Virus record (IMG/VR): IMGVR_UViG_2713896907_000001
Span: 1-22,891 of that record
DNA: 22,891 nt
Reading direction: 5' to 3' (one strand)
From: a virus
Taxonomy: Duplodnaviria; Heunggongvirae; Uroviricota; Caudoviricetes
Position numbers and translations under genes: made by a program. Shown here piece after piece: positions 1 through 21,002 of the stretch. The notes below the pieces were generated by a model, which saw only the letters and a list, made by a program, of their open reading frames with translations, ran no database searches and was not told the DNA's origin. Position 1 is the stretch's first letter. Each line of letters opens with the position of its first letter.

Positions 1-502
1 TCATCACAGCCCAGTCAGTTTCTCCTGGATGATTTGCATAGAATTGCTCAGGTGTAACAAATTGAGATTTGTCTGTTAAATCATGCAATACCTCATGAAG
101 ATTCATACCAAGATCTGTTCCAACAAGTTCAGAACCAGAGTTAGAGGATAGTTCTTGTTTGAATCTGTCAGGCTCATACTTCAACACATTAGGAAAATAA
201 AACTGCCGCGCTCCATATGCATCATAAACGGCCATAGAATGGCCTTGCACAGTTACGAATTTGGCAATCTGTCCGTTATATACCGGGTAACCAGCAGCGT
301 TAATGATGATTGGTTGCGAAACAGGAACGTGAGAGCCGTCTTCGTTCTCCACATAAACCTGAATCTGGTTTTCAGGATTTACCGGGTCAGTGTCAATTTT
401 ACCGATATAAATTTTGCCATTAGCTACGGCTTTAAAAGAACGAGCCATAGTGAAGAGTTGCGAAGGCATCGATACGATCACATTGGCTGTAATGTCTGTC
501 AT
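1..502 (-). CDS. Tailspike protein, N-terminal head-binding domain (partial; gene continues past the left edge of the window)
   Basis: Not in the ORF track because no stop lies in the window. Manual minus-strand translation from ATG at 502..500 gives [97 protein letters not shown]..., closely matching the remembered P22 tailspike N-terminus ([11 protein letters not shown]...[22 protein letters not shown]...[10 protein letters not shown]...[15 protein letters not shown]). GGAG Shine-Dalgarno upstream. Confidence 0.85.
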
Positions 503-634
503 TTAATTTGCTCCAGATACAAGGAATCGCCGCAGCATGGCTACGGTTGATGTTTGTTGCATACCGAAATGGTACGATTGTTGATTTGTACAGTAGGTTT
601 TACGATGCCATTCCACCCATTTGGTGAGGCATTG

Positions 635-892
635 ATGATGTACAGCAAATACGATGAGGCGCAGTTCCACTTGAGGCTTACGCACGAGTTGCACGCTAAG
701 ATTAAGCAGCGTGCAAAAATGAATAACAGGTCTATCAATTCCGAAATTGTGGCTACGATGGAAGAATCACTCTCCAAACCATCACCTGTAAGCGGGTATC
801 GTGATGAAGAAGAGAGGTTGGCCTCATTAATCTCGGAGCGAGTAAAAGAAGTTGCGGCTGATATCCTTAGAAAAGAAAAAACCCGCGATTAA
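635..892 (+). CDS. Mnt-like ribbon-helix-helix repressor (paralog A)
   Basis: From ATGATG at 635 (GGTGAGG Shine-Dalgarno upstream): MMYSKYDEAQFHLRLTHELHAKIKQRAKMNNRSINSEIVATMEESLSKPSPVSGYRDEEERLASL.... The NGRS-type RHH core and the C-terminal SKPSPV(S/T)GYR..ERLA segment match remembered P22 Mnt; the N-terminal beta-strand residues differ. Upstream part of the track ORF 554..892 is probably not translated. Confidence 0.7.
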   Translation: MMYSKYDEAQFHLRLTHELHAKIKQRAKMNNRSINSEIVATMEESLSKPSPVSGYRDEEERLASLISERVKEVAADILRKEKTRD

Positions 893-900
893 GCGGGTTT
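875..900 (-). terminator. Intrinsic terminator for the minus-strand arc-ant operon (hairpin also overlaps the 3' end of the plus-strand mnt-like gene)
   Basis: Stem ACCCGC (881-886), 6-nt loop, GCGGGT (893-898); on the minus strand it is followed by a TTTTTTCTTTT run. Lies directly after the stop of ORF 907..1128. Confidence 0.6.
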
Positions 901-906
901 AGCTGG

Positions 907-1128
907 TTAGTTATCAAAAAGTCCGTACGTTTCTTCTTCTTCAGGTGTAAGGGGAAGAATCTCTACTCTATCTATAGATACCTTTTCAATGTACCCATGA
1001 GGTCTACTTAAAATTAAAGCTCTCTCATGCCACAGAACTCCAAGAATGTGATACCTTCCAGCATCGCCTTTTACCCTGGCTCTTCCTTTGATTCTTGGCG
1101 GCATAATGCCATATTTTTTCTTTGCCAT
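907..1128 (-). CDS. Hypothetical 73-aa protein, translationally coupled to the upstream antirepressor-like gene
   Basis: ORF MAKKKYGIMPPRIKGRARVKGDAGRYHILGVLWHERALILSRPHGYIEKVSIDRVEILPLTPEEEETYGLFDN; its ATG overlaps the stop of the preceding gene (TAATG at 1126-1130). No family recognised. Confidence 0.45.
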   Translation of the reverse strand: MAKKKYGIMPPRIKGRARVKGDAGRYHILGVLWHERALILSRPHGYIEKVSIDRVEILPLTPEEEETYGLFDN

Positions 1129-1853
1129 TATGCAACATTACTCCCATGAATCAGGTGTTGTAGTGCTTTAACACCTTCCTCATTGTAGCGGAACGCTTCC
1201 ACCTGTTTGCTGGAATGCGCAGATTTATCCAGGAAGAACTTCCCGTACTGCTCAGTTTTGAGGTTGTTTGCGTTAGCAATGCGACCAATCTTGTTGGCCG
1301 TTACTCCAAGCTGCTCTGCAACCTCCCCTGCTGAGTAGTAATGCTCTTCTATTGCCGGAAGAGGTATTGCATTAAAACCAACGAGCGGGTTGATTATACT
1401 TGCTGCCGCTGTCTGCTTTGCCTCCGGCGCAAGATTTGGCATCAGATCGAACAGATTGGTAACAGCTTCAACCGTCATTTTCAATGTTCGCGCTTGACGA
1501 TACTCAACAAGTCCACTCGCTGATTTACCGCTTTTAATGTGCGCTTCCTGCATACTTTCAAGTTTGTCTACAAGTGTTCGGCGAACTGCTTTAGATTCGC
1601 GAGCAGCAACACGAAGCGCCTGCTTGATAGTCATGGAGATAACATCAATGTCAGCCCCGTTTTTCCGACCTACACTTTTTGTGTAGGTCTCGCCTTCCAA
1701 TTCATCCTCAATTTTCTCGATGAATTTGTTGTTACGTACTGATGGCTCTCCACATAACTTGCGAGCTTCATTAACCATCATCAGAAGACTTTGGCTGTCA
1801 ATGGTTTTATCCGTGACAACGGATCCGATGTTTGCTACATTCTTAAAAGTCAT
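1128..1853 (-). CDS. Antirepressor-like protein with C-terminal ANT/KilAC-type DNA-binding region (ant2)
   Basis: Track ORF 1128..1940 begins at a non-ATG codon; the likely start is ATG at 1853 (MTFKNVANIGSV...) preceded by an AAGGAA Shine-Dalgarno. C-terminal segment YYSAGEVAEQLGVTANKIGRIANANNLKTEQYGKFFLDKSAHSSKQVEAFRYNEEGVKAL looks like the helix-turn-helix part of phage antirepressor C-terminal domains. Confidence 0.55.
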   Translation of the reverse strand: MTFKNVANIGSVVTDKTIDSQSLLMMVNEARKLCGEPSVRNNKFIEKIEDELEGETYTKSVGRKNGADIDVISMTIKQALRVAARESKAVRRTLVDKLESMQEAHIKSGKSASGLVEYRQARTLKMTVEAVTNLFDLMPNLAPEAKQTAAASIINPLVGFNAIPLPAIEEHYYSAGEVAEQLGVTANKIGRIANANNLKTEQYGKFFLDKSAHSSKQVEAFRYNEEGVKALQHLIHGSNVA

Positions 1854-1891
1854 TAGGCATTCCTTATGTGGTAGTAAGTGTGTGACATAGG

Positions 1892-1922
1892 CCGCCAGCA
1901 GCACACTGGCGGTTTTCTTTTG
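1892..1922 (+). terminator. Plus-strand intrinsic terminator antisense to the ant1-ant2 junction (candidate end of a sar-like antisense RNA)
   Basis: Perfect 7-bp stem CCGCCAG (1892-1898), 7-nt loop, CTGGCGG (1906-1912), followed on the plus strand by TTTTCTTTTG. No credible plus-strand protein gene ends here. Confidence 0.55.
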
Positions 1923-1940
1923 CGCCGTCCTGTGCACCAA

Positions 1941-2567
1941 TCAATGAATCCATTCCTCGCCGCGAAGTTTTGCCAGCATTGGCTGAGCGTTCTTTACGAC
2001 AAAATTGTTGGTATCAAGATTCTTCATTTCACGAAGAAGTGATTTCTTGGTTTCTTCTGACATGTAGCGAGTCTCATATGCAATATCGTAAATCCTTCCT
2101 GAAAGCTCAGAACCAATTTGCTTCATTCCTGGGTAGATGTGTTTGCACATTTGTTGACTCTTCTCCATCCACAATTGTAAGTAGCAGAGATTAACCAGCT
2201 CTTCGTCAGTGAACTGTTTTGCAATCGGTGAGCATTCTGTCTGCCGATCCAAAATATCCAGCACCCAGCGGCGGAACTCTTTGGCTACCGGAGTGCGAGC
2301 AAACATCGCGATTAGGTGGGCACCGCGTAGTGAGAAAACTCGCACTTTTTTGCGATAATTTCCTGAGGTACTCACTTCGAGTACCTGAGTCATTCCGGCG
2401 CTAAACTCATCGCTATACTTGTTATAAATCATTGTTACTGCACGACTATTTGCGTATTTAAGTGCAGATGCAATATTAGATGATGTAAACCAAACACCAT
2501 GCATATCACGGGTGGGCACCAACTCAACTCCGTGGAAGTTGTAATCTGATTTTGCTACAATATTCAT
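1941..2567 (-). CDS. Antirepressor-like protein, N-terminal (BRO-N/Ant-N type) domain (ant1)
   Basis: Track ORF 1941..2651 would overlap arc; the likely start is ATG at 2567 (MNIVAKSDYNFHGVELVPTRDMHGVWFTSSNIASALKYANSRAVTMIYNKYSDEF...) with an AAGGAAA Shine-Dalgarno. It sits directly downstream of the Arc-like gene, as ant does in the P22 immI region. Confidence 0.55.
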   Translation of the reverse strand: MNIVAKSDYNFHGVELVPTRDMHGVWFTSSNIASALKYANSRAVTMIYNKYSDEFSAGMTQVLEVSTSGNYRKKVRVFSLRGAHLIAMFARTPVAKEFRRWVLDILDRQTECSPIAKQFTDEELVNLCYLQLWMEKSQQMCKHIYPGMKQIGSELSGRIYDIAYETRYMSEETKKSLLREMKNLDTNNFVVKNAQPMLAKLRGEEWIH

Positions 2568-2601
2568 GTTAGTTTCCTTGCATACGGTTACTGACATAGA
2601 G

Positions 2602-2645
2602 GCCCGGTTTGTGTTCGCGCACTGCCGGGCTTCACTATTTTTATT
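2602..2645 (+). terminator. Plus-strand hairpin plus U-rich tract in the arc-ant1 intergenic region (candidate sar-like terminator)
   Basis: GCCCGG (2602-2607) pairs with CCGGGC (2625-2630), with an inner GTG/CAC stem; followed by TTCACTATTTTTATT. Position matches where P22 sar RNA terminates, at the 3' end of arc. Confidence 0.4.
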
Positions 2646-2814
2646 GGGCATTATCTCTTTCCTCTCTCAGGCTTTTAGCCAGTCGCTGCACAATCGCAGA
2701 GTTGATAGAAATTCCATCCATTTCAGCAACACGTCTAATCTCCTCCTTCATTCGCGCTGGCAAACGAAGCTGGAAACTTTGACTTTTACGACCTGTGTAA
2801 AGCACATCTTTCAT
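2641..2814 (-). CDS. arc: Arc-like ribbon-helix-helix repressor
   Basis: From ATG at 2814 (GGGAGG Shine-Dalgarno 7 nt upstream): MKDVLYTGRKSQSFQLRLPARMKEEIRRVAEMDGISINSAIVQRLAKSLREERDNAQ. RHH pattern resembles remembered P22 Arc (PQFNLRWPREVLDLVRKVAEENGRSVNSEIYQRV); divergent from an Mnt-like gene and upstream of ant-like genes. Confidence 0.7.
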   Translation of the reverse strand: MKDVLYTGRKSQSFQLRLPARMKEEIRRVAEMDGISINSAIVQRLAKSLREERDNAQ

Positions 2815-2841
2815 AAGTAATCCTCCCACAATGATACCAAC

Positions 2842-2857
2842 TTGGTTCTAGAACCAA
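2842..2857. promoter_or_regulatory. Perfect 16-bp palindrome TTGGTTCTAGAACCAA in the divergent arc/mnt control region (candidate operator)
   Basis: The sequence at 2842-2857 equals its own reverse complement. It lies in the 96-bp intergenic region between the divergently transcribed Arc-like and Mnt-like genes. A related half-site AAGTTGGT occurs at 2883-2890. Confidence 0.6.
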
Positions 2858-2925
2858 TTTAACACCATTTATTTTGATGTCAAGTTGGTGCTATTGTTTA
2901 GCGAACATCTTTACGTTGAGGTCAT

Positions 2926-3246
2926 ATGAGCAAGTTCCCTAGTCATGAAATGGATAGGTTCAATATCAGGCTTCCTGCAGGAATGCGGGATGCTATAGCT
3001 GAACGAGCAAAACGTAACGGCAGATCAATGAACTCAGAGATTGTTCAGATACTGGAAGATGCCTTGAATGCAGAAAATACACTCGGGGAAATAGCAGATA
3101 AAATCAACAGCGTCTCGGTTCCGCTAAATGTTGATGCGCTAGTTCAACTTCAAGCCCAGGTTATCGCCATGCAAAAAGAAATACAGGAAAAGTTCAGAGA
3201 GCAGAACGAAAAGTTGAGAGAACTGCTAAACAAAAAACCCACCTGA
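2926..3246 (+). CDS. Mnt/Arc-family ribbon-helix-helix repressor (paralog B, in the canonical mnt position)
   Basis: MSKFPSHEMDRFNIRLPAGMRDAIAERAKRNGRSMNSEIVQILEDALNAENTLGEIADKINSV... has the RHH core (FNIRLP ... NGRSMNSEIVQ) followed by a coiled-coil-like C-terminus. Divergent from arc, as mnt is in P22 immI. Confidence 0.7.
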   Translation: MSKFPSHEMDRFNIRLPAGMRDAIAERAKRNGRSMNSEIVQILEDALNAENTLGEIADKINSVSVPLNVDALVQLQAQVIAMQKEIQEKFREQNEKLRELLNKKPT

Positions 3247-3271
3247 AGGTGGGTTAATTTTTGCCTTTTTT
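3231..3271. terminator. Bidirectional intrinsic terminator
   Basis: Stem AACCCACC (3236-3243), loop TGAA, GGTGGGTT (3248-3255). Flanked by an A-run upstream and TTTTTGCCTTTTTT downstream, so a U-tract follows the hairpin on either strand. Separates the immI genes from the upstream moron cluster and late operon. Confidence 0.65.
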
Positions 3272-3345
3272 GGACCATATTGACTACTTATAAAATGAGA
3301 TCAATATTTAATCGCCCAATAACGGGTATATGTTGAGGTATATCA

Positions 3346-3524
3346 TGGCGAAAAAACCAGGTGAAAACACAGGAAAAAACGGCGGAATATACCAAGAAGT
3401 TGGCCCACGCGGCGGTAAGAAAGACAATTTTGCAACCGTCAAGGACAACGAAAGGCTTCCACCAACAACAAAGCCAGGTCATGGCTGGGTATTGGATAAG
3501 CGAACTCCAGACAGCAAAAAGTAA
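3346..3524 (+). CDS. YjzC-like small protein
   Basis: From ATG at 3346 (GAGGT Shine-Dalgarno): MAKKPGENTGKNGGIYQEVGPRGGKKDNFATVKDNERLPPTTKPGHGWVLDKRTPDSKK. The KPGE..G.Y.EVG..G and P.T...H.W pattern resembles the YjzC-like family as I remember it. Has its own upstream region after the bidirectional terminator. Confidence 0.55.
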
Positions 3525-3537
3525 TAATCAAGCCGGG

Positions 3538-3903
3538 TCACTCCGGCTTTTTGATATGTCGCTCGCAGAACTCAACAAGCCTGCTCATTAAGTAGCAGTA
3601 AGTCTCGTTGGCTCTTCCTGGTTCAACATCAACACCTACCCTTGAGCAGATATCGAATGCCATGTGAGCGCACTCATGGGCAATAGTAGATAGTTTGCCA
3701 TTGAACACGCCTATCACATGCAAAACACCATTCTCGCTACTCATTGTATGAGACGCTCCGTTGGCGTCCGAGTCATGCACGTCAACGCCAAGTTTTTGAT
3801 GCAGGCGTTGCCATTCTGGAAAGTCTCTACAAAACACAATTGTACCGCTCTCAAAGAGCGGAACGAGCATCTTTGGTACGTTTCCAATGTTAACTTTTTT
3901 CAT
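3538..3903 (-). CDS. Small HExxH zincin-like protein (possible minimal ImmA/IrrE- or SprT-like metallopeptidase fold)
   Basis: From ATG at 3903: MKKVNIGNVPKMLVPLFESGTIVFCRDFPEWQRLHQKLGVDVHDSDANGASHTMSSENGVLHVIGVFNGKLSTIAHECAHMAFDICSRVGVDVEPGRANETYCYLMSRLVEFCERHIKKPE. HECAH motif, with a Glu 17 residues downstream and an ANETYCYLM segment reminiscent of the ImmA/IrrE E..AN.FA..LL motif. Confidence 0.5.
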   Translation of the reverse strand: MKKVNIGNVPKMLVPLFESGTIVFCRDFPEWQRLHQKLGVDVHDSDANGASHTMSSENGVLHVIGVFNGKLSTIAHECAHMAFDICSRVGVDVEPGRANETYCYLMSRLVEFCERHIKKPE

Positions 3904-3933
3904 GGTATCCTGCACAAAACTAAGGAGGTTGGT

Positions 3934-4323
3934 GTGAAGCGATTTCTTGCTGCTATGTTCTTATTCATATCTTTTGAGGCTACAGCAGAGTGCTGGGTCG
4001 TTGGAGATATGCGCGGAATAAGCTATTCAGAACGAAATAATTTCCATCCGGAAGAAGATGGTTTTAGTGGAACATTCATCATTAAGACAAGCGGTGAAGA
4101 TGCCAGCATCACATATTCTGGGACAGATGCGGGCGGCATGGCTTACAAAGCATTGTCTAAAAACTCCATCATAGGAATCGGCGCGAATGGCGAAACTCAA
4201 CGCGTTATCGACTCATGGGTAATACATCCTACTGGAACAGTTTTAATGTCAAAAACCATTTCCGGTTATGGAAATATGGATTCAACCAAAGCTTTTGTTG
4301 GAAAAGTAAAAAGAAAATGTTAG
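3934..4323 (+). CDS. Hypothetical exported protein with N-terminal signal peptide
   Basis: The track ORF 3718..4323 is antisense to the HExxH gene over its 5' half. The likely start is GTG at 3934, 5 nt after an AAGGAGG Shine-Dalgarno (3922-3928). Product MKRFLAAMFLFISFEATAECWVVGDMRG... has a basic n-region, hydrophobic core and ATA-E cleavage-like site; no lipobox. Confidence 0.5.
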   Translation: MKRFLAAMFLFISFEATAECWVVGDMRGISYSERNNFHPEEDGFSGTFIIKTSGEDASITYSGTDAGGMAYKALSKNSIIGIGANGETQRVIDSWVIHPTGTVLMSKTISGYGNMDSTKAFVGKVKRKC

Positions 4324-4347
4324 CGATTGAATCCAATTTCCCATACG

Positions 4348-6222
4348 TTACTGCTGTGTTGCCTCAGTAGCAAACAGCGGTCTGATGGCATTCGCAGCGT
4401 TATTTAGCGCTCTTTCATAGGCTGGTGTTCCTGCTTTGGTGTTTGCCAAACGAAGAAGCATATTCCTTGCGGCTTTGGACTCATACAAACGCATCATTGC
4501 ACCAAAGCCAGCCTCAAGCCCCATTGATACTCCAAGAGTCGCAGTTGCGCCAATCGTCCTTATCCTGTTGGCTTGTGATTGCCCCGTCTGAGTTACTACA
4601 TTTGCGGTGTCTGACCTTGCTGTTTGCTGTAGAACTTCATGAAGAGCATCAAGCTCTTTCATGTGCTTTCCAGAAAAAATAGTGTTGTAAATTTCACCGC
4701 CTGACTGAGATTTAAGCTTATTAACTTCAGTGATGAACTTGGCTGGAGAGTCACCGGCCTTTTCCGCTATTTTGCTGACGTAAGCTGCACGCATAGCATC
4801 TTTCCCTTTATCATCCAATGCGCTCCAGATTCGTTTCACGTCAGATGGCTTTCTGCTTAATACAACGGTATTTATAAGTTCAGGACTGGCTTCACTGCTT
4901 GCCTTGTTGAGCTTGTTAGCAATGTTTTTATTAAGCACCTTATTATAAACGTTTGCATAATCGGAGTTTGCTTTAAGGTATTTTGCTGCGTCTGATGCAC
5001 CGAGGTTTTTTGCAACTGCGCTACGAAGATCTTTTGACATTGCATTCTCTACCATATTGGTAGCTGCTTTTGCCTGGTTGGGGAAGACCATAGCATCTCC
5101 CTGAACATTGGATCTAAATGCTGTTCTGTGCTGACGCAAGAGATCAAACGTAACATCCAAATCAGTTGCAGGGTTTGCTAATTCTTCACGTAGGTTACGC
5201 AAGGATGTAAGCAGGCTTTGATTGGCAGACGTCCCAAGCCGTTCCTGTCTTGCGATCGCTGTATTCAGAGCATTCATGGTATTTGTGGTATCAACTGCGG
5301 CATTACCCATTTTATTGGTGACGTCATTGATAACAGCGCCAGCGGCATCCTTCCGTCCCCTTAACGTGGTGGTCAGAGATTTCACCACATCATCAGGGTT
5401 GTACTCACCAAAACGGTCAAAATAATTGCTTACCAGCTTACTACGCGTTGCATATTGCTCCGCTCGCTTTGAGCCTGTCCCGAGCAAAGCCCCCTCAGCA
5501 TCCTGAGTAAGTCCGCGAGTGAAAGCATTTTTCGGCGGGATAACATCAGATGTCATTGGTGTCACGCCCATCGATTCTGATGTGGCAATTTTCTTCGCCA
5601 CTTCTGGCGCAATATCACCTTTTATAGCCGTTATTCCACGCCCTATTCCCTTTGCTGCTGCGGAAAGAACACCCTGAGCGGCAAGGTTAACTCCGGCATT
5701 TTTAGCTGCATTTTGTGCGAAATCACCTTTCTGATTTGCGGCCTCTGCCAGTGATCCAATAGCCATGCTTCCTGCCGTTCCAACTCCTGGAACTAAATAC
5801 CCGCCAATTGTTTCTCCAGCTTGAGCGTAGGGGTCTGTCGGTCTGTCTACTGGACGATAGACATCATCCAATACTTTTGGCCCACCAAGCCCCTGACTGA
5901 TTGCATTAATCAGACTTGCGCCACCCTGCAATACGTCAAATGGTATGTTTACCAGACCACGACCAGCCTGTTCTGCAATTTGCCCTGCACTTTGACCACC
6001 AGTGAGCCAATCGCCAGCTTGTTGCATCAATGATGGTTCTTCTTTCTGCTGCTGAGGCGGAGGGTATGCTGCATAAAACTGATCTCTTGCTTCAGCCCAT
6101 TTGTCACCAGCCTTAGGGGCAACAACCTCATCAAAATATTGCGCTTGAGCCTGTGCTTTCTGTTCTTCAGTTAACGCCTGATACTGTGGAGAAGCGATAA
6201 CATCTTTCCATGCTTTAGCCAT
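4348..6222 (-). CDS. Ejection (injection) protein, P22 gp16-like
   Basis: 624-aa ORF in the gp16 position, last of the 14-7-20-16 ejection block; size close to P22 gp16; Ala/Gly-rich low-complexity internal region typical of these proteins. Confidence 0.75.
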
Positions 6223-13788: not shown

Positions 13789-15987
13789 TTACTGCTGTGG
13801 TTGTTGCTGGGTTGATTTTTGCAGGATGCTGCTGATGTCCATTCGTTGTGCATGGCCCTGTGCCTGACTTTTCAGGACAAGCTCTGCATCAGCACGGGCA
13901 TTGTCTCCTTGCTGTTGCTGGAACTGTCCGAGCAGTTTCAGCGCCTCACGGATATCAGATTTTTGCTGGCTATCGGCAGATGCGAGGATTTTCACAACAT
14001 TTGCCGCAGCAACCTGAGCATCCGTCTGTGCCTGGAATGCTTTAACCTGAATGGCTGCCTGTTCGTTCTGCGCTTTCTGCAATTCAGCCTGACCAGCAAG
14101 AAGCTGACCTTGCGCTGCAACCATAGCCGGATCTGGCTGACTGGCCTGTTGTTGTTTCGCCTGTTCAACCATCTGCTGTTCTTCAGGCGTTCTCGGCTTG
14201 ATAACGCCAGACAGAAGCAACTGATTGCGGTTGTATTCTTTAAGGTCGTCCATCCCTTCGCCGTCCATATTGTCGAGAATCATCGACGATACAAGGTCGT
14301 GCTTCGGCGTTCCTGGTGGGATAAGTGCCAGCATGGAAAGTAACGACTTAACCGTTGCATCACGGCGAGTAGCGAACGACTGACCGACATCGACAGTCAC
14401 TTCATAGTTACCCTGCGAAAGGTCGTTAAGCGCGATAACCTGCCCTGTCTGACGGTCAACCACTTCACCAGTCATCAGCGCCACGTCATCGCTGCCATCC
14501 TCATTAACGATGCGCATTGGCGTATCGCTGCCATAGACTTCACGAGCCATAGAAAGCCACACGACGCCAGCACGGCGCATGGATTTAGCCATGTTGTCCA
14601 TGTAGATATAGGACTGCGTGTCCATCCGATTAAAGATGCTATCAACGGTATCGGTAGCGACGTTGCTCGGCATGTTCTCAAGCTGCGACGCACCTGTAAT
14701 TTGCTGAATAGCCGTTCCGGTGTACTGCAATAGCCCGGCAAGAGCAGGAGGCATTTGTGTCGGAGGTGTCCAGCCAGCAACCTGAGCCTCTGAAATGACC
14801 GTTCCGTTTTTGTCCTTCTTGCTGGTCATGGGAAGAACTGCAGGTCTTTTCTTATTCCTCTCTGCCCAGTGATTCATTAATGGACCGGGAATGAAATCAA
14901 CATCCACGATAGGAATGCCATCACCGCCAGCCTGAGTAGCGTTATCTGCAATCATGGAAACCATCAGGTTCTCAAGACGCTGTGCATCCATCGCTTTTGC
15001 TGCGTGGCCTTCGATTCGCTCCTGATTATCAACAAATGAGCGACGCCCATATACCGGGATGAGAGGAATATGTTCGCCAGGAATACGCTTCGGTTCTTCC
15101 AGCCATTCAGCGCCAGAAAGAAGACCGCAATAAACTCGGCGTTTCTTCACCGTTCTCTCGCCAATCAGTTCGAATGCACCATCGGTCAGCTCGTCGACAA
15201 TATCTTTGATTTGCTCTTCATCATAGATTGCCGTTTCTCCGCTAACAGGGTTGCGCCACGCCGTGAGCTTCACCTTCTCTATGCGAACTTCGTAGTAACG
15301 TCCAACATAGATGGCGTCAGGCGTTGACCAGTCATACTGAGTACCAGTGTCATCCCGAGAAAGGCTTGCCGCAATGGAATCAGGGTATTCAGCCTCGAAC
15401 GCTTTAGGCGTCATGGAGAACATTTCCATAGCCCACATAGCATCAGAGCGGTCATATTGTTTGCTGTCCTGATCGAAGAAGACGCATGTCGCCGGGTCGT
15501 AAACAGGAAGAATGCTGATGCGTCGCTGCTCGTTACTTGGGTCCATTTCATCTTCGTAATCGGCACACATGCGGAAACAACCGAATCCGCCCGTTACAGC
15601 ATCATCAAATGCGTTATCACACGCTTCGCCACCTGATGTTTCCTGATAGTCAGCGCGGAATTTGCCGTTCATCTTTTCGGCTAACGCTTCCGATGCCTTG
15701 TCATCCTTCGGCCTGAATTTAACGCTGATGCGATTCTGTCGATACTCGCCAATGATGCGATCACATTCACGGGCAATCTTATTCAGTTCAAAGCGCGGGT
15801 AATGCTCAAACCTGCCTTCATCAAATGAGTAACCAGCGTTTGTGCTGCCTTCCCACTGTGCGCCGGATACCCGGACGAAACGTTGAGCCTCAATAATCTG
15901 CTCACGCATATCCTGCGTTGCTGACCAGGCATTATCAAAGTTGCACAGCACCTTGCGATGCCAGTCAGTCATCTTTTTTTCTGCCAT
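13789..15987 (-). CDS. Portal protein, P22 gp1-like
   Basis: 732-aa ORF. Segments such as KRRRVYCGLLSGAEWLEEPKRIPGEHIPLIPVYG and the C-terminal Gln-rich helical region ending DISSILQKSTQQQPQQ align with remembered P22 portal (KRRRVYKSIITCT...AGEHIPIVPVFG; long C-terminal barrel). Confidence 0.9.
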   Translation of the reverse strand: MAEKKMTDWHRKVLCNFDNAWSATQDMREQIIEAQRFVRVSGAQWEGSTNAGYSFDEGRFEHYPRFELNKIARECDRIIGEYRQNRISVKFRPKDDKASEALAEKMNGKFRADYQETSGGEACDNAFDDAVTGGFGCFRMCADYEDEMDPSNEQRRISILPVYDPATCVFFDQDSKQYDRSDAMWAMEMFSMTPKAFEAEYPDSIAASLSRDDTGTQYDWSTPDAIYVGRYYEVRIEKVKLTAWRNPVSGETAIYDEEQIKDIVDELTDGAFELIGERTVKKRRVYCGLLSGAEWLEEPKRIPGEHIPLIPVYGRRSFVDNQERIEGHAAKAMDAQRLENLMVSMIADNATQAGGDGIPIVDVDFIPGPLMNHWAERNKKRPAVLPMTSKKDKNGTVISEAQVAGWTPPTQMPPALAGLLQYTGTAIQQITGASQLENMPSNVATDTVDSIFNRMDTQSYIYMDNMAKSMRRAGVVWLSMAREVYGSDTPMRIVNEDGSDDVALMTGEVVDRQTGQVIALNDLSQGNYEVTVDVGQSFATRRDATVKSLLSMLALIPPGTPKHDLVSSMILDNMDGEGMDDLKEYNRNQLLLSGVIKPRTPEEQQMVEQAKQQQASQPDPAMVAAQGQLLAGQAELQKAQNEQAAIQVKAFQAQTDAQVAAANVVKILASADSQQKSDIREALKLLGQFQQQQGDNARADAELVLKSQAQGHAQRMDISSILQKSTQQQPQQ

Positions 15988-15988
15988 A

Positions 15989-17404
15989 TCAACCTACACC
16001 ACAAGGAATTGAGTAACTGGAATAGTCGGGTTGCGCAGCCGACTCCGGGCAATGCATACACATCATCAGCGCATCAGCCAGGTTAGGAGATGGAATACCG
16101 AGCTTCTGCTTCATTTCGACCTTAGTCATAAGCTCCAGCTTCCCGTTGTTATTGAATTTGCGCTGAATCTGCGTAAGTTCTGCAAACAGCTTCTCCAGCA
16201 TCTTCTCGCCTATCGCTTCTTTGTCGAAACTCAGCATGTCGTCTGGGTCTGCATACTCACCGTGAACAACCGCCCGATATGTCAGATACAGCCTGTCAGC
16301 CAGCGCGTAATAGAATTGCGCTCGCTTATTGCGGAAAACATCGCCAATAGTGCGGACGTTGTCTCCCTGCACGACTTCATCAGCCCATGCTCCGGCCTGA
16401 TAAGGCGCATCTTCATCGAATGGCGATTCGCTGCCCTTGAACATCGTGGCGGTAATTTTCTTGCCGGAGAATGCTTCCGTTGTCTGTCTGCGTAGCCCTG
16501 CACCGACACCATCACCATCCCACAGGTAATGGTCAGCGCCGTCTTCAATTGCCAGCGAAGTAGCCCAGTCAGCACCCTCGTTGATGTCCATCAGCAGACC
16601 TTCGGCAATGCGCTTAACTACCGAACCGTGACGCGATGCATAACCTTTAGCATCTGGCCCTGTATCTGATGGGTCATGCGCAGAGACAACAGCGCCTTTC
16701 GCTTTCCATCCGAGTTTCTTGTGCGCATCGGTTGCGGCTTCAAGCCATTCACGTTTGATGATTGCCATATCACTTGCGCTTACTGGCTCACCAAGCCAGA
16801 TGTGACGATACAGTGTCGGGTTTCTGCGTTTACACTCTTCCATCTCCAGACGGAGAACTTCAGGAAAGTGCGGGTTGTCGGTGTAGTTCACCGTCAGCAG
16901 ACAAATATCATCGGGAGGGTTTACTACGAATCGCTGATAGGTATCGTCGAGGATGTTTTTCGGGTTAAAGCTCACCCATATTTCGGAAAACGGCTTGCGG
17001 ATGGTTGGTATCAGGATATCCCATGATTCCTTCGTTACCGCTTCCGCTTCTTCCACCCAGCAGATATCAATGCCTTCGAGCGATTTAATCTTCGTCGGGT
17101 TGTTTTTGATGCCGTAGAACATGAATTCAGCATTCGTTCCGAGATGACGAATCATTGAACGCTGAATTTCAAACTCAGCCGAATACCCTTCCCGCTCTAT
17201 GGTGTCTTCAAGCAACCGGATTACCGAATCGCTGATACTGTTTTGCAGTTCACGAGCGCAGAGAATACGCACAGGCTGCCGACGCGCCGCTTCAACAAGC
17301 AGCCTCGCAATTGCCCATGATTTACCGCTACCTCGACCGCCTTTGGCGACTTTGTAGCGATGCGCCTCAATAAACGGTTCAAAGATAGGATTAATCGAGG
17401 TCAT
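15989..17404 (-). CDS. Terminase large subunit
   Basis: 471 aa, MTSINPIFEPFIEAHRYKVAKGGRGSGKSWAIARLLVEAARRQPVRILCARE... with a Walker A ATPase motif and a C-terminal nuclease region; matches the Sf6-type large terminase as I remember it. Start overlaps the terS stop (ATGA). Confidence 0.95.
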   Translation of the reverse strand: MTSINPIFEPFIEAHRYKVAKGGRGSGKSWAIARLLVEAARRQPVRILCARELQNSISDSVIRLLEDTIEREGYSAEFEIQRSMIRHLGTNAEFMFYGIKNNPTKIKSLEGIDICWVEEAEAVTKESWDILIPTIRKPFSEIWVSFNPKNILDDTYQRFVVNPPDDICLLTVNYTDNPHFPEVLRLEMEECKRRNPTLYRHIWLGEPVSASDMAIIKREWLEAATDAHKKLGWKAKGAVVSAHDPSDTGPDAKGYASRHGSVVKRIAEGLLMDINEGADWATSLAIEDGADHYLWDGDGVGAGLRRQTTEAFSGKKITATMFKGSESPFDEDAPYQAGAWADEVVQGDNVRTIGDVFRNKRAQFYYALADRLYLTYRAVVHGEYADPDDMLSFDKEAIGEKMLEKLFAELTQIQRKFNNNGKLELMTKVEMKQKLGIPSPNLADALMMCMHCPESAAQPDYSSYSIPCGVG

Positions 17405-20846: not shown

Positions 20847-20922
20847 TGGTGCTGGTTAACGGACTTGAACCGCTACCCATTCGCTTACAAGGCGACTGCT
20901 CTACCATTGGAGCTAAACCAGC
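20847..20922 (-). tRNA. tRNA-Thr (anticodon UGU)
   Basis: Minus strand GCTGGTTTAGCTCCAATGGTAGAGCAGTCGCCTTGTAAGCGAATGGGTAGCGGTTCAAGTCCGTTAACCAGCACCA folds as a 76-nt cloverleaf: perfect 7-bp acceptor and 4-bp D stem, anticodon loop CTTGTAA, T-loop TTCAAGT, encoded CCA. One G-A at the base of the anticodon stem. Confidence 0.75.
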
Positions 20923-20927
20923 ATATT

Positions 20928-21002
20928 TGGCGGGACAGCGTGGACTCGAACCACGATAAGAAGGTTAACAGCCTTCCGTAATGACCTTTATACGACTGAC
21001 CC
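20928..21002 (-). tRNA. tRNA-Asn-like (anticodon GUU), possibly slightly degenerate
   Basis: Minus strand GGGTCAGTCGTATAAAGGTCATTACGGAAGGCTGTTAACCTTCTTATCGTGGTTCGAGTCCACGCTGTCCCGCCA: perfect anticodon stem GAAGG/CCTTC, loop CTGTTAA, T-arm CGTGG-TTCGAGT-CCACG, encoded CCA. One U-U mismatch in the acceptor stem and a 3-bp D stem. Only 5 nt from tRNA-Thr. Confidence 0.55.

Follow-up and report, generated by a model that had tools for sequence, protein, structure and literature searches.

The immI region of Salmonella phage P22 is a textbook regulatory circuit, and the sar RNA is its single antisense layer (Liao et al. 1987, Wu et al. 1987, and Schaefer & McClure 1997, as cited in PMC2629481). 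The target of sar is the antirepressor gene ant (PMC2629481, PMC13397905), and the comparative literature consulted on P22-like phages mentions a single sar (PMC2629481). In the RefSeq annotation of P22, sar lies at 15090..15021, with its promoter in the first codons of ant and its terminator in the gap between arc and ant. Here we describe a stretch of 22,891 nucleotides from a Caudoviricetes virus (IMG/VR record IMGVR_UViG_2713896907_000001), referred to as the window, in which two antirepressor-like genes, ant1 and ant2, follow an arc gene on the minus strand. Two sar-like units are found on the opposite strand, one for each antirepressor-like gene, as an original prediction made without database searches had proposed. 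Unit 1, at the arc-ant1 junction, is the positional homologue of sar. Unit 2, at the ant1-ant2 junction, is the subject of this work, and the RNA that it is predicted to encode is named sar2. From the comparative evidence below we consider it likely that sar2 exists and represses ant2.

A predicted antisense RNA opposite the start of ant2

The ant2 gene (1853..1128, minus strand) encodes 241 residues, with the ATG at 1853..1851 and a Shine-Dalgarno (SD) sequence, AAGGAA, at 1865..1860. The stop codon of ant1 occupies 1941-1943 on the same strand, leaving between the two genes a gap of 87 bp, rather than the 88 bp first given for it. Within this gap is the intrinsic terminator of unit 2 (1889..1921, plus strand). 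Its core, CCGCCAG at 1892-1898 and CTGGCGG at 1906-1912, encloses a 7-nt loop (1899-1905) and extends to a stem of 10 pairs (1889-1898 with 1906-1915), of which six are G-C. The U-tract runs from 1913 to 1921; TTTTCTTTTG is found at 1913-1922 on the plus strand, overlapping the end of the stem, and the stem is followed by TTTTCTTTT. A G+C-rich stem-loop with an adjoining U-tract on the transcribed strand is characteristic of intrinsic (Rho-independent) terminators, and this hairpin was the top terminator-like site in positions 1-6000 of the window, where 18 such sites were found compared to 5.1 ± 2.3 in shuffled sequences. The strong plus-strand terminator of the original prediction was borne out. 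Minus-strand sequence after the hairpin reads CCTATGTCAC and contains no U-tract; the terminator is therefore unidirectional, acting on the plus strand only. The terminator of P22 ant (16012-35) was compared as a possible relative of the unit 2 hairpin and found to be unrelated.

The hairpin had also been described as lying where no plus-strand gene ends, which needs qualification. A mechanically called open reading frame (ORF) of 56 codons (1720-1890, plus strand) does stop just before the hairpin, but it is antisense to the 5′ end of ant2, its start is upstream of the promoter described below, and no usable start codon was found inside the predicted RNA, where the available starts give no more than 2-5 codons. 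In most variants of unit 2 the hairpin is immediately preceded by a stop codon (TAG, TAA, or TGA). A small plus-strand ORF or micropeptide was considered and rejected, as the UA[AG] is better accounted for by pairing of its A and G bases with the U-tract.

Upstream of the hairpin, and within codons 5-14 of ant2, is a σ70-like promoter sequence with the layout GTGACA-17-TGcTACATT (1813-1841, plus strand), designated Psar2. The -35 element, GTGACA (1813..1818), agrees with TTGACA at five of six positions and overlies Val-Thr codons of ant2. The extended -10 element (1833..1841), comprising TG at 1833-1834 and TACATT at 1836-1841, overlies Asn-Val-Ala codons. The same pair of hexamers had been reported earlier with an 18-nt spacer at 1814-1843; the pair itself was recovered, with the spacer corrected to 17 nt, the coordinates to those given here, and the TG of the extended -10 added. 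The bases TGn, T1, A2, and T6 and the 17-bp distance to the -35 that mark a σ70 extended -10 promoter are present and conserved, and initiation is predicted to follow from them.

The 5′ end of sar2 was placed 7 nt beyond the -10 element, which gives a predicted RNA of ~74 nt (1848..1921, plus strand) that begins with AGUCAU and is complementary to codons 1 and 2 of ant2, the SD sequence, and the ant1-ant2 spacer. The complement of the SD, UUCCUU (1860..1865), lies within the 5′ stem-loop. Folding of individual sequences gave two stem-loops, the 5′ hairpin and the terminator, with the same plan in most variants. Such per-sequence folds were used for stem-loop I because the alignment of the 5′ domain (MAFFT, RNAalifold) was too unstable for a formal covariation test. 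In most homologues the anti-SD sequence UCCU is in the apical loop of stem-loop I, with an unpaired probability of 0.8-1.0. A covariance model for unit 2, termed R2, matched positions 1848-1921 at 67.7 bits.

Unit 2 thus presents the characters of a sar-type element: a promoter with an extended -10 in the 5′ coding region of its target, a predicted transcript complementary to the region where translation of an antirepressor-like gene in a Pant/arc operon is initiated, and a predicted fold of ~70 nt with a 5′ stem-loop and an intrinsic terminator in the intercistronic gap. A short RNA of about 70 nt complementary to the ribosome-binding site and start codon of ant2, as originally proposed, is supported as a prediction by this P22 sar-like architecture, by conservation of the promoter at synonymous sites, and by covariation of the terminator stem. 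No annotation of unit 2 was found in any genome record inspected. The hairpin sequence was not found in the papers of the searchable literature library, and a search of it for "Psar / sar-like" returned unrelated papers only.

Promoter bases are conserved across genera

Homologues of unit 2 were gathered in two ways, neither of which depended on the promoter. An exact search of IMG/VR with the hairpin gave 82 loci, which together with three further loci and the window made up 86 hairpin-bearing sequences. A protein-based search for relatives of ant2, with one genome taken per species, gave 44 loci from genera that include Serratia, Pantoea, Citrobacter, Proteus, Erwinia, Kluyvera, Buttiauxella, Yersinia, Providencia, Photorhabdus, and Xenorhabdus. 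The loci ascertained by hairpin or by protein span more than 15 genera, over which the bases of the -35, the TG, and the -10 are fixed and the spacer and encoded residues vary.

Every distinct left-flank variant in the 86-locus set that had enough flank carried the motif [GT][TC]GACA-N17-TGnTAnAnT. The protein match reached the N-terminus in 21 of the loci found by protein, and the motif was present in 16 of these (Serratia, Pantoea, Citrobacter, Proteus, Erwinia, Kluyvera, Buttiauxella, and others); the other five, from the insect symbionts Arsenophonus and Sodalis, were degenerate copies. In the motif-bearing loci, A-GTCAT or a close variant occurs 6 nt after the motif, with a terminator a further 40-55 nt on. 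The promoter elements stand at a fixed ~48-55 nt upstream of the hairpin.

Promoter bases and encoded residues were compared in 17 alignable homologues of type A. The -35 GTGACA was invariant in all 17, and conformed to [GT][TC]GACA in every variant; the TG and the T1, A2, A4, and T6 of the -10 were likewise invariant, and the encoded residues varied between Asn and Thr, among Val, Ile, and Leu, and among Ala, Thr, and Ser. Third-codon positions critical to the promoter were invariant in 5 of 5 cases, compared to 2 of 19 at the other third positions (Fisher p = 5e-4). When all codon positions were considered, 11 of 11 promoter-critical positions were invariant versus 18 of 63 others (p = 8e-6).

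Unit-2-type RNAs at five loci in Providencia, Proteus, Photorhabdus, and Erwinia (L101-L104 and L115) were found only by an RNA model that excludes the promoter. These loci have a different promoter-like element at the same place, TTGACT-N16-18 followed by AATACT or GATAAT, which looks like an independent solution to the same promoter requirement.

The promoter and terminator are inherited as a block

A BLAST search of 5,426 complete E. coli genomes found the region in 89 of them, or about 1.6%, with recurrent breakpoints of similarity at window positions ~1792 and ~1920, indicating therefore that promoter and terminator are inherited together, as one block. Strain 980-2 is 99.7% identical to the window over positions 1700-2000. 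Seven or more Ant types are represented among the genes upstream of unit 2, one of them a true homologue of P22 Ant (L013), and in E. coli strain A10 the cassette stands behind an ant of the P22_AR_N type. The downstream genes are of three unrelated types: the ant2 type, some with a KilAC C-terminus; the ORF6N type, exemplified by gp22 of SPN3UB; and the Rha type. The leader that bears the promoter is outside the Pfam domains of these proteins, Rha beginning at residue 15 and ORF6N at residue 24-25. Only 11 records of isolated phage genomes carried unit 2, which is mostly a prophage feature.

Three further observations concern the history of such loci. In Klebsiella phage phiKp_30 (L002, positions 3780-3920), unit 2 and ant2 are kept and the upstream ant1 has been replaced, with the last ~7 codons of ant1 (…GEEWIH*) fused to a truncated NinX-like start (MDYSKLSDFEINRRV…) and the recombination joint just past the terminator. 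In L013 and some other prophages, a true P22 Ant is followed by unit 2 and ant2. P22 itself (L086, NC_002371) has, at ~16060-16115 in the spacer between the ant terminator and gene 9, a relic of ~50 nt from the interior of ant2 (window 1660-1712), with 78% mean column identity over an alignment of ~95 columns and a peak in the central ~50 nt; P22 may therefore descend by deletion from an ant-ant2 arrangement.

The alternative that survives best, although we judge it unlikely, is that the hairpin is a plus-strand terminator only, directed against antisense read-through and without a dedicated promoter or small RNA (sRNA). The convergent Mnt-like gene at 635-892 (plus strand) could be the origin of such read-through: the hairpin that follows it, at 879-900, has a U-tract on the minus strand only and none on the plus strand, so that transcription continuing towards 1889-1915 is plausible. 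The promoter motif taken alone, moreover, does not exceed chance. Against this explanation, the promoter is held at a fixed distance from the hairpin and conserved at synonymous sites across genera, and the promoter-terminator cassette moves as one block. Furthermore, the annotated genes in the ~2.9 kb upstream in SPN3UB are all on the opposite strand, and the terminator therefore serves no plus-strand gene there. Alongside the predicted sRNA, the element may have a secondary role in blocking read-through from the Mnt-like gene.

The terminator helix covaries on the sRNA strand

Covariation of the terminator was examined in a model-based alignment, A5, of 24 cross-genus hits with a 9-bp helix. 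The helix was paired in 97% of cells, and five of the nine pairs had changed on both sides, as in GCCGATAG/CTATCGGC, CCGCCAA/TTGGCGG, and CCAGCAG/CTGCTGG. None of 500 shuffles reached the observed covariation score or paired fraction, and slid registers collapsed. When cells were read on the sRNA strand, G·U outnumbered A·C by 21 to 1, and therefore the helix has been selected on the plus (sRNA) strand and not on the mRNA strand.

This bias bears directly on a second alternative, in which the element functions at the mRNA level on the minus strand, with a hairpin between ant1 and ant2 that affects processing, stability, or decoupling, and the conserved 5′ codons of ant2 reflect constraint on the protein or on translation initiation. 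The complementary hairpin would form in the ant1-ant2 mRNA, within the 87-nt intercistronic gap. However, the G·U cells would correspond to mismatches in the mRNA, and the U-tract is on the plus strand only; both speak against a hairpin that serves solely as minus-strand mRNA structure, which, together with the absence of a plus-strand transcript, the original prediction had named as the outcome that would overturn it. The encoded residues change where the promoter bases do not, and the leader is outside the Rha and ORF6N domains. We regard this second explanation as very improbable.

Least probable of all is a mosaic linker with no regulatory function, kept identical by frequent homologous recombination among lambdoid and P22-like phages: 82 IMG/VR loci share a 100% identical hairpin amid very different flanks, and similarity to other phages begins or ends at this hairpin, but the cross-genus hairpins have diverged with compensatory changes and the spacers have diverged with the promoter bases kept, which argues for purifying selection on function and not for recent exchange. 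A role as a recombination joint is possible and is compatible with a functional module.

Unit 1 and the two-unit layout

Unit 1 (2553..2646, plus strand) lies at the arc-ant1 junction and comprises an extended -10, TGcTACAAT, at 2553-2561, a predicted RNA at 2568-2646, and a terminator stem formed by 2599-2607 with 2625-2633. Its sequence begins TGcTACAAT-ATTCAT-G at 2553-2568, with the G as the first base of the RNA, and continues with a 5′ stem, GUUAGU/ACUGAC, and then GAGGCCCGG...CCGGGCTTC and a U-tract. The corresponding sequence of P22 sar is GTGTTA-17-TGcTATACT-ATTCAT-G; details of sar structure were taken from the P22 annotation and our own folds. The unit 1-type layout, with covarying stems, was found in eight other loci. 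A covariance model, R1, was built from 10 diverse arc-ant junction units, P22 included, and scored unit 1 (2568-2646) at 78.3 bits.

An R1 match, on the strand of unit 2 and ~650-1000 nt from it, was found in 79 of 87 hairpin-bearing loci, as well as in most of the cross-genus loci. The two-unit layout had been called unusual in the original prediction, a view that does not hold given its occurrence in many Enterobacterales genera. Judged by these model matches, the layout is widespread, with one predicted unit per cistron the rule. The further suggestion that the two units arose by duplication was not demonstrated. R1 misses unit 2, and the reverse match, in which R2 aligns unit 1 collinearly (CAU, UUCCU, UGACAUAG, hairpin, and U-tract), reached only 13.3 bits with an E-value of ~0.9, which falls short of what we would take as homology; we do not claim paralogy of unit 2 and sar.

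The Rfam sar model (RF00262) recognized P22 sar, used as control, at 97.8 bits (gathering threshold 43 bits). It missed unit 2 and also the positional homologue at 2568-2646, and the model is therefore narrow. Other Rfam output for the window consisted of tRNAs and chance-level hits to SymR, ctRNA_p42d, and Hrs13 only; the matches of ctRNA_p42d to unit 2 (14.9 bits) and of SymR to unit 1 (21.8 bits) were far below threshold.

Three Xenorhabdus loci (L105, L108, and L122) have R1-type units on either side of the ant2-like gene, an arrangement suggestive of chains with at least three antisense units. A -10 sequence, TTTGCTA[CT]ATT, stands ~28 nt further upstream of the R1 match in L105, L108, and L109, implying a longer 5′ end.

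Gene context of the window

As a whole, the window represents the late region of a phage or prophage that is P22-like (Lederbergvirus-type). The late genes are all on the minus strand and end with the tailspike gene, of which the N-terminal part is present (503..1, minus strand); these genes share their strand with ant. The ant moron, of the immI type, lies between a gene-16-like DNA-transfer gene (4348-6222) and the tailspike gene, and the minus-strand order is Pant, arc, ant1, ant2, orf73, and then tailspike. The Pant-like promoter, TTGACA-16-TAAATT (2883..2856, minus strand), matches at 10 of 12 positions, has a TG, is positioned as in P22, and would drive arc-ant1-ant2-orf73. The first gene of this operon, arc (2814..2641, minus strand), encodes an Arc-like repressor (Pfam Arc, E = 9e-12). 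It is followed by ant1 (2567..1941, minus strand), encoding an antirepressor of 208 residues with Bro-N and P22_AR_C domains. The ant2 product falls in phrog_1726, "anti-repressor", and has no Pfam match. The start of orf73 (1128..907, minus strand; phrog_4977, of unknown function) overlaps the stop codon of ant2, and orf73 is therefore probably translationally coupled to ant2. The operon ends at a terminator at 900..879 on the minus strand. The closest isolated phage is Escherichia phage JEP4, with 98% identity over the aligned 65% of window positions 900-3300, an alignment that covers orf73, ant2, ant1, and part of arc.

Two Arc/Mnt-family genes are found on the plus strand of the window, at 635-892 and 2926-3246. 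The first, located between orf73 and the tailspike gene, is convergent to the ant operon and encodes the closer Mnt homologue (…SKPSPVSGYRDEEERLA…). In P22 it is mnt that diverges from Pant, whereas in the window the divergent position is held by a different ribbon-helix-helix protein of 106 residues, the Arc-family product of 2926-3246. Hairpins at 3236-3255 and 3530-3549 score as terminator-like on both strands; the first is at the end of the Mnt-like gene 2926-3246 and the second at that of a small plus-strand ORF (3330-3524), and both may be bidirectional terminators. Two adjacent tRNA genes, tRNA-Thr (tgt) and tRNA-Asn (gtt), are located at 20847-21002 on the minus strand.

Discussion

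We read sar2, as predicted here, as representing a sequence-distinct family of sar-like cis-antisense RNAs with a new class of target, a per-cistron arrangement, and a portable cassette. The control mechanism itself is already known, and unit 2 is a further example of it.

In the mechanism that we propose, Psar2 would fire against the direction of ant2, with transcription starting near 1848 and stopping at the hairpin and U-tract at 1889-1921. The resulting sar2 would pair perfectly with the ant1-ant2 mRNA, from the second codon of ant2 back through the AUG and the SD sequence into the intercistronic spacer. By analogy with the action of P22 sar on ant, pairing would block ribosome binding on ant2 and, via coupling, on orf73, and the duplex would probably also be exposed to RNase III. 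With sar2 beside unit 1, each antirepressor-like cistron would have its own silencer. An active Pant, being convergent, probably interferes with promoters of the Psar type, and the antisense RNAs would build up only after Pant had been shut by Arc or Mnt.

The location of the ant moron suggests why such RNAs might be kept. Arc and Mnt would shut Pant but could not stop late read-through transcripts. Since the moron is in the late operon upstream of the tailspike gene, late transcripts would carry every ant-like cistron whatever the state of repression at Pant, and this escape is a likely rationale for one post-transcriptional block per cistron. Late transcription through the ant moron is noted in the epsilon34 paper (PMC2629481).

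Several considerations weigh against our reading of unit 2. Both sar2 and the RNAs of the homologous units are predictions from sequence. The bare promoter motif is not above chance, with 6 promoter-like sites in 6 kb compared to 10.2 expected, and its significance derives only from cross-species conservation. The sequences used in the codon test were anchored by a regular expression for the motif, which introduces a bias that is limited, since all alignable homologues carried the motif, but not zero. Many copies are linked by recent horizontal exchange, and the counts of loci are therefore not counts of independent events. The predicted fold of the window copy leaves the anti-SD unpaired only in part (0.39). 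Neither sar model recognizes unit 2: RF00262 misses it in the whole window at the gathering threshold and in 1700-2950 at E ≤ 10, and R1 finds only 2568-2646 in the window. Finally, the identity of ant2 as an antirepressor derives from annotation alone, and its homologue in JEP4 is annotated as "KilA protein".

A broader proposal, which we advance tentatively and with rather less confidence than the existence of sar2, is that unit 2 is a portable, self-silencing start module of ~130 bp (~1792-1920), consisting of a terminator, an SD sequence, a start codon, and a leader of 10-20 codons dictated by the antisense promoter. The module might be grafted by recombination onto unrelated regulators (ant2/KilAC, ORF6N, and Rha), such that each cistron of an ant moron would arrive with its own silencer and chains of two or three units would form. 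The promoter, and not protein function, would then set the conserved N-terminal peptide.

If these predictions are true, multi-gene antirepressor operons are under an antisense layer that acts cistron by cistron in many P22-like and lambdoid prophages of Enterobacterales, and the RNAs of unit 2 form a second, sequence-distinct sRNA family that is absent from Rfam and from the genome annotations inspected. The locus would also be a clean natural case of a coding-embedded promoter that constrains the N-terminus of several unrelated proteins, and would suggest a reason for antisense use here, namely that Pant repressors cannot silence late-read-through cistrons. There is practical bearing on prophage annotation and on the engineering of antirepressor-based induction switches.

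The predicted sar2 can be compared to three kinds of described antisense RNA. Plasmid countertranscript RNAs of the CopA/ctRNA type resemble it in having a hairpin loop complementary to the initiation region of the target and a terminator at the end; unlike sar2, their targets are replication genes, and no homology is claimed. The OOP RNA of lambda and P22, antisense to cII/c1, is likewise a short cis-antisense RNA of phages, transcribed from a constitutive promoter of its own to an intrinsic terminator. OOP acts by RNase III-dependent decay rather than by covering a ribosome-binding site. Its overlap, in contrast to that of sar2, is with the 3′ end of the target, and the two RNAs are unrelated in sequence. 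Post-transcriptional action of OOP on a regulator of the lysis-lysogeny decision is documented (PMC7067206; P22 annotation).

The closest resemblance is to P22 sar. Like sar, unit 2 would encode a cis-antisense RNA of ~70 nt from an extended -10 promoter in the first codons of an antirepressor gene, opposite in direction to Pant, and the RNA would span the ribosome-binding site of its target and end at an intrinsic terminator in the intercistronic gap, with two predicted stem-loops. The differences are in the target and in the sequences. Whereas sar acts on ant, the predicted target of unit 2 is a second antirepressor-like cistron, of the ant2, ORF6N, or Rha type. The terminator sequences differ, and unit 2 has a good -35, GTGACA, compared to GTGTTA in sar. 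The -10 of unit 2 also sits 6 nt deeper in the gene than that of P22 sar, and its RNA would therefore cover the AUG and the second codon of the target as well.

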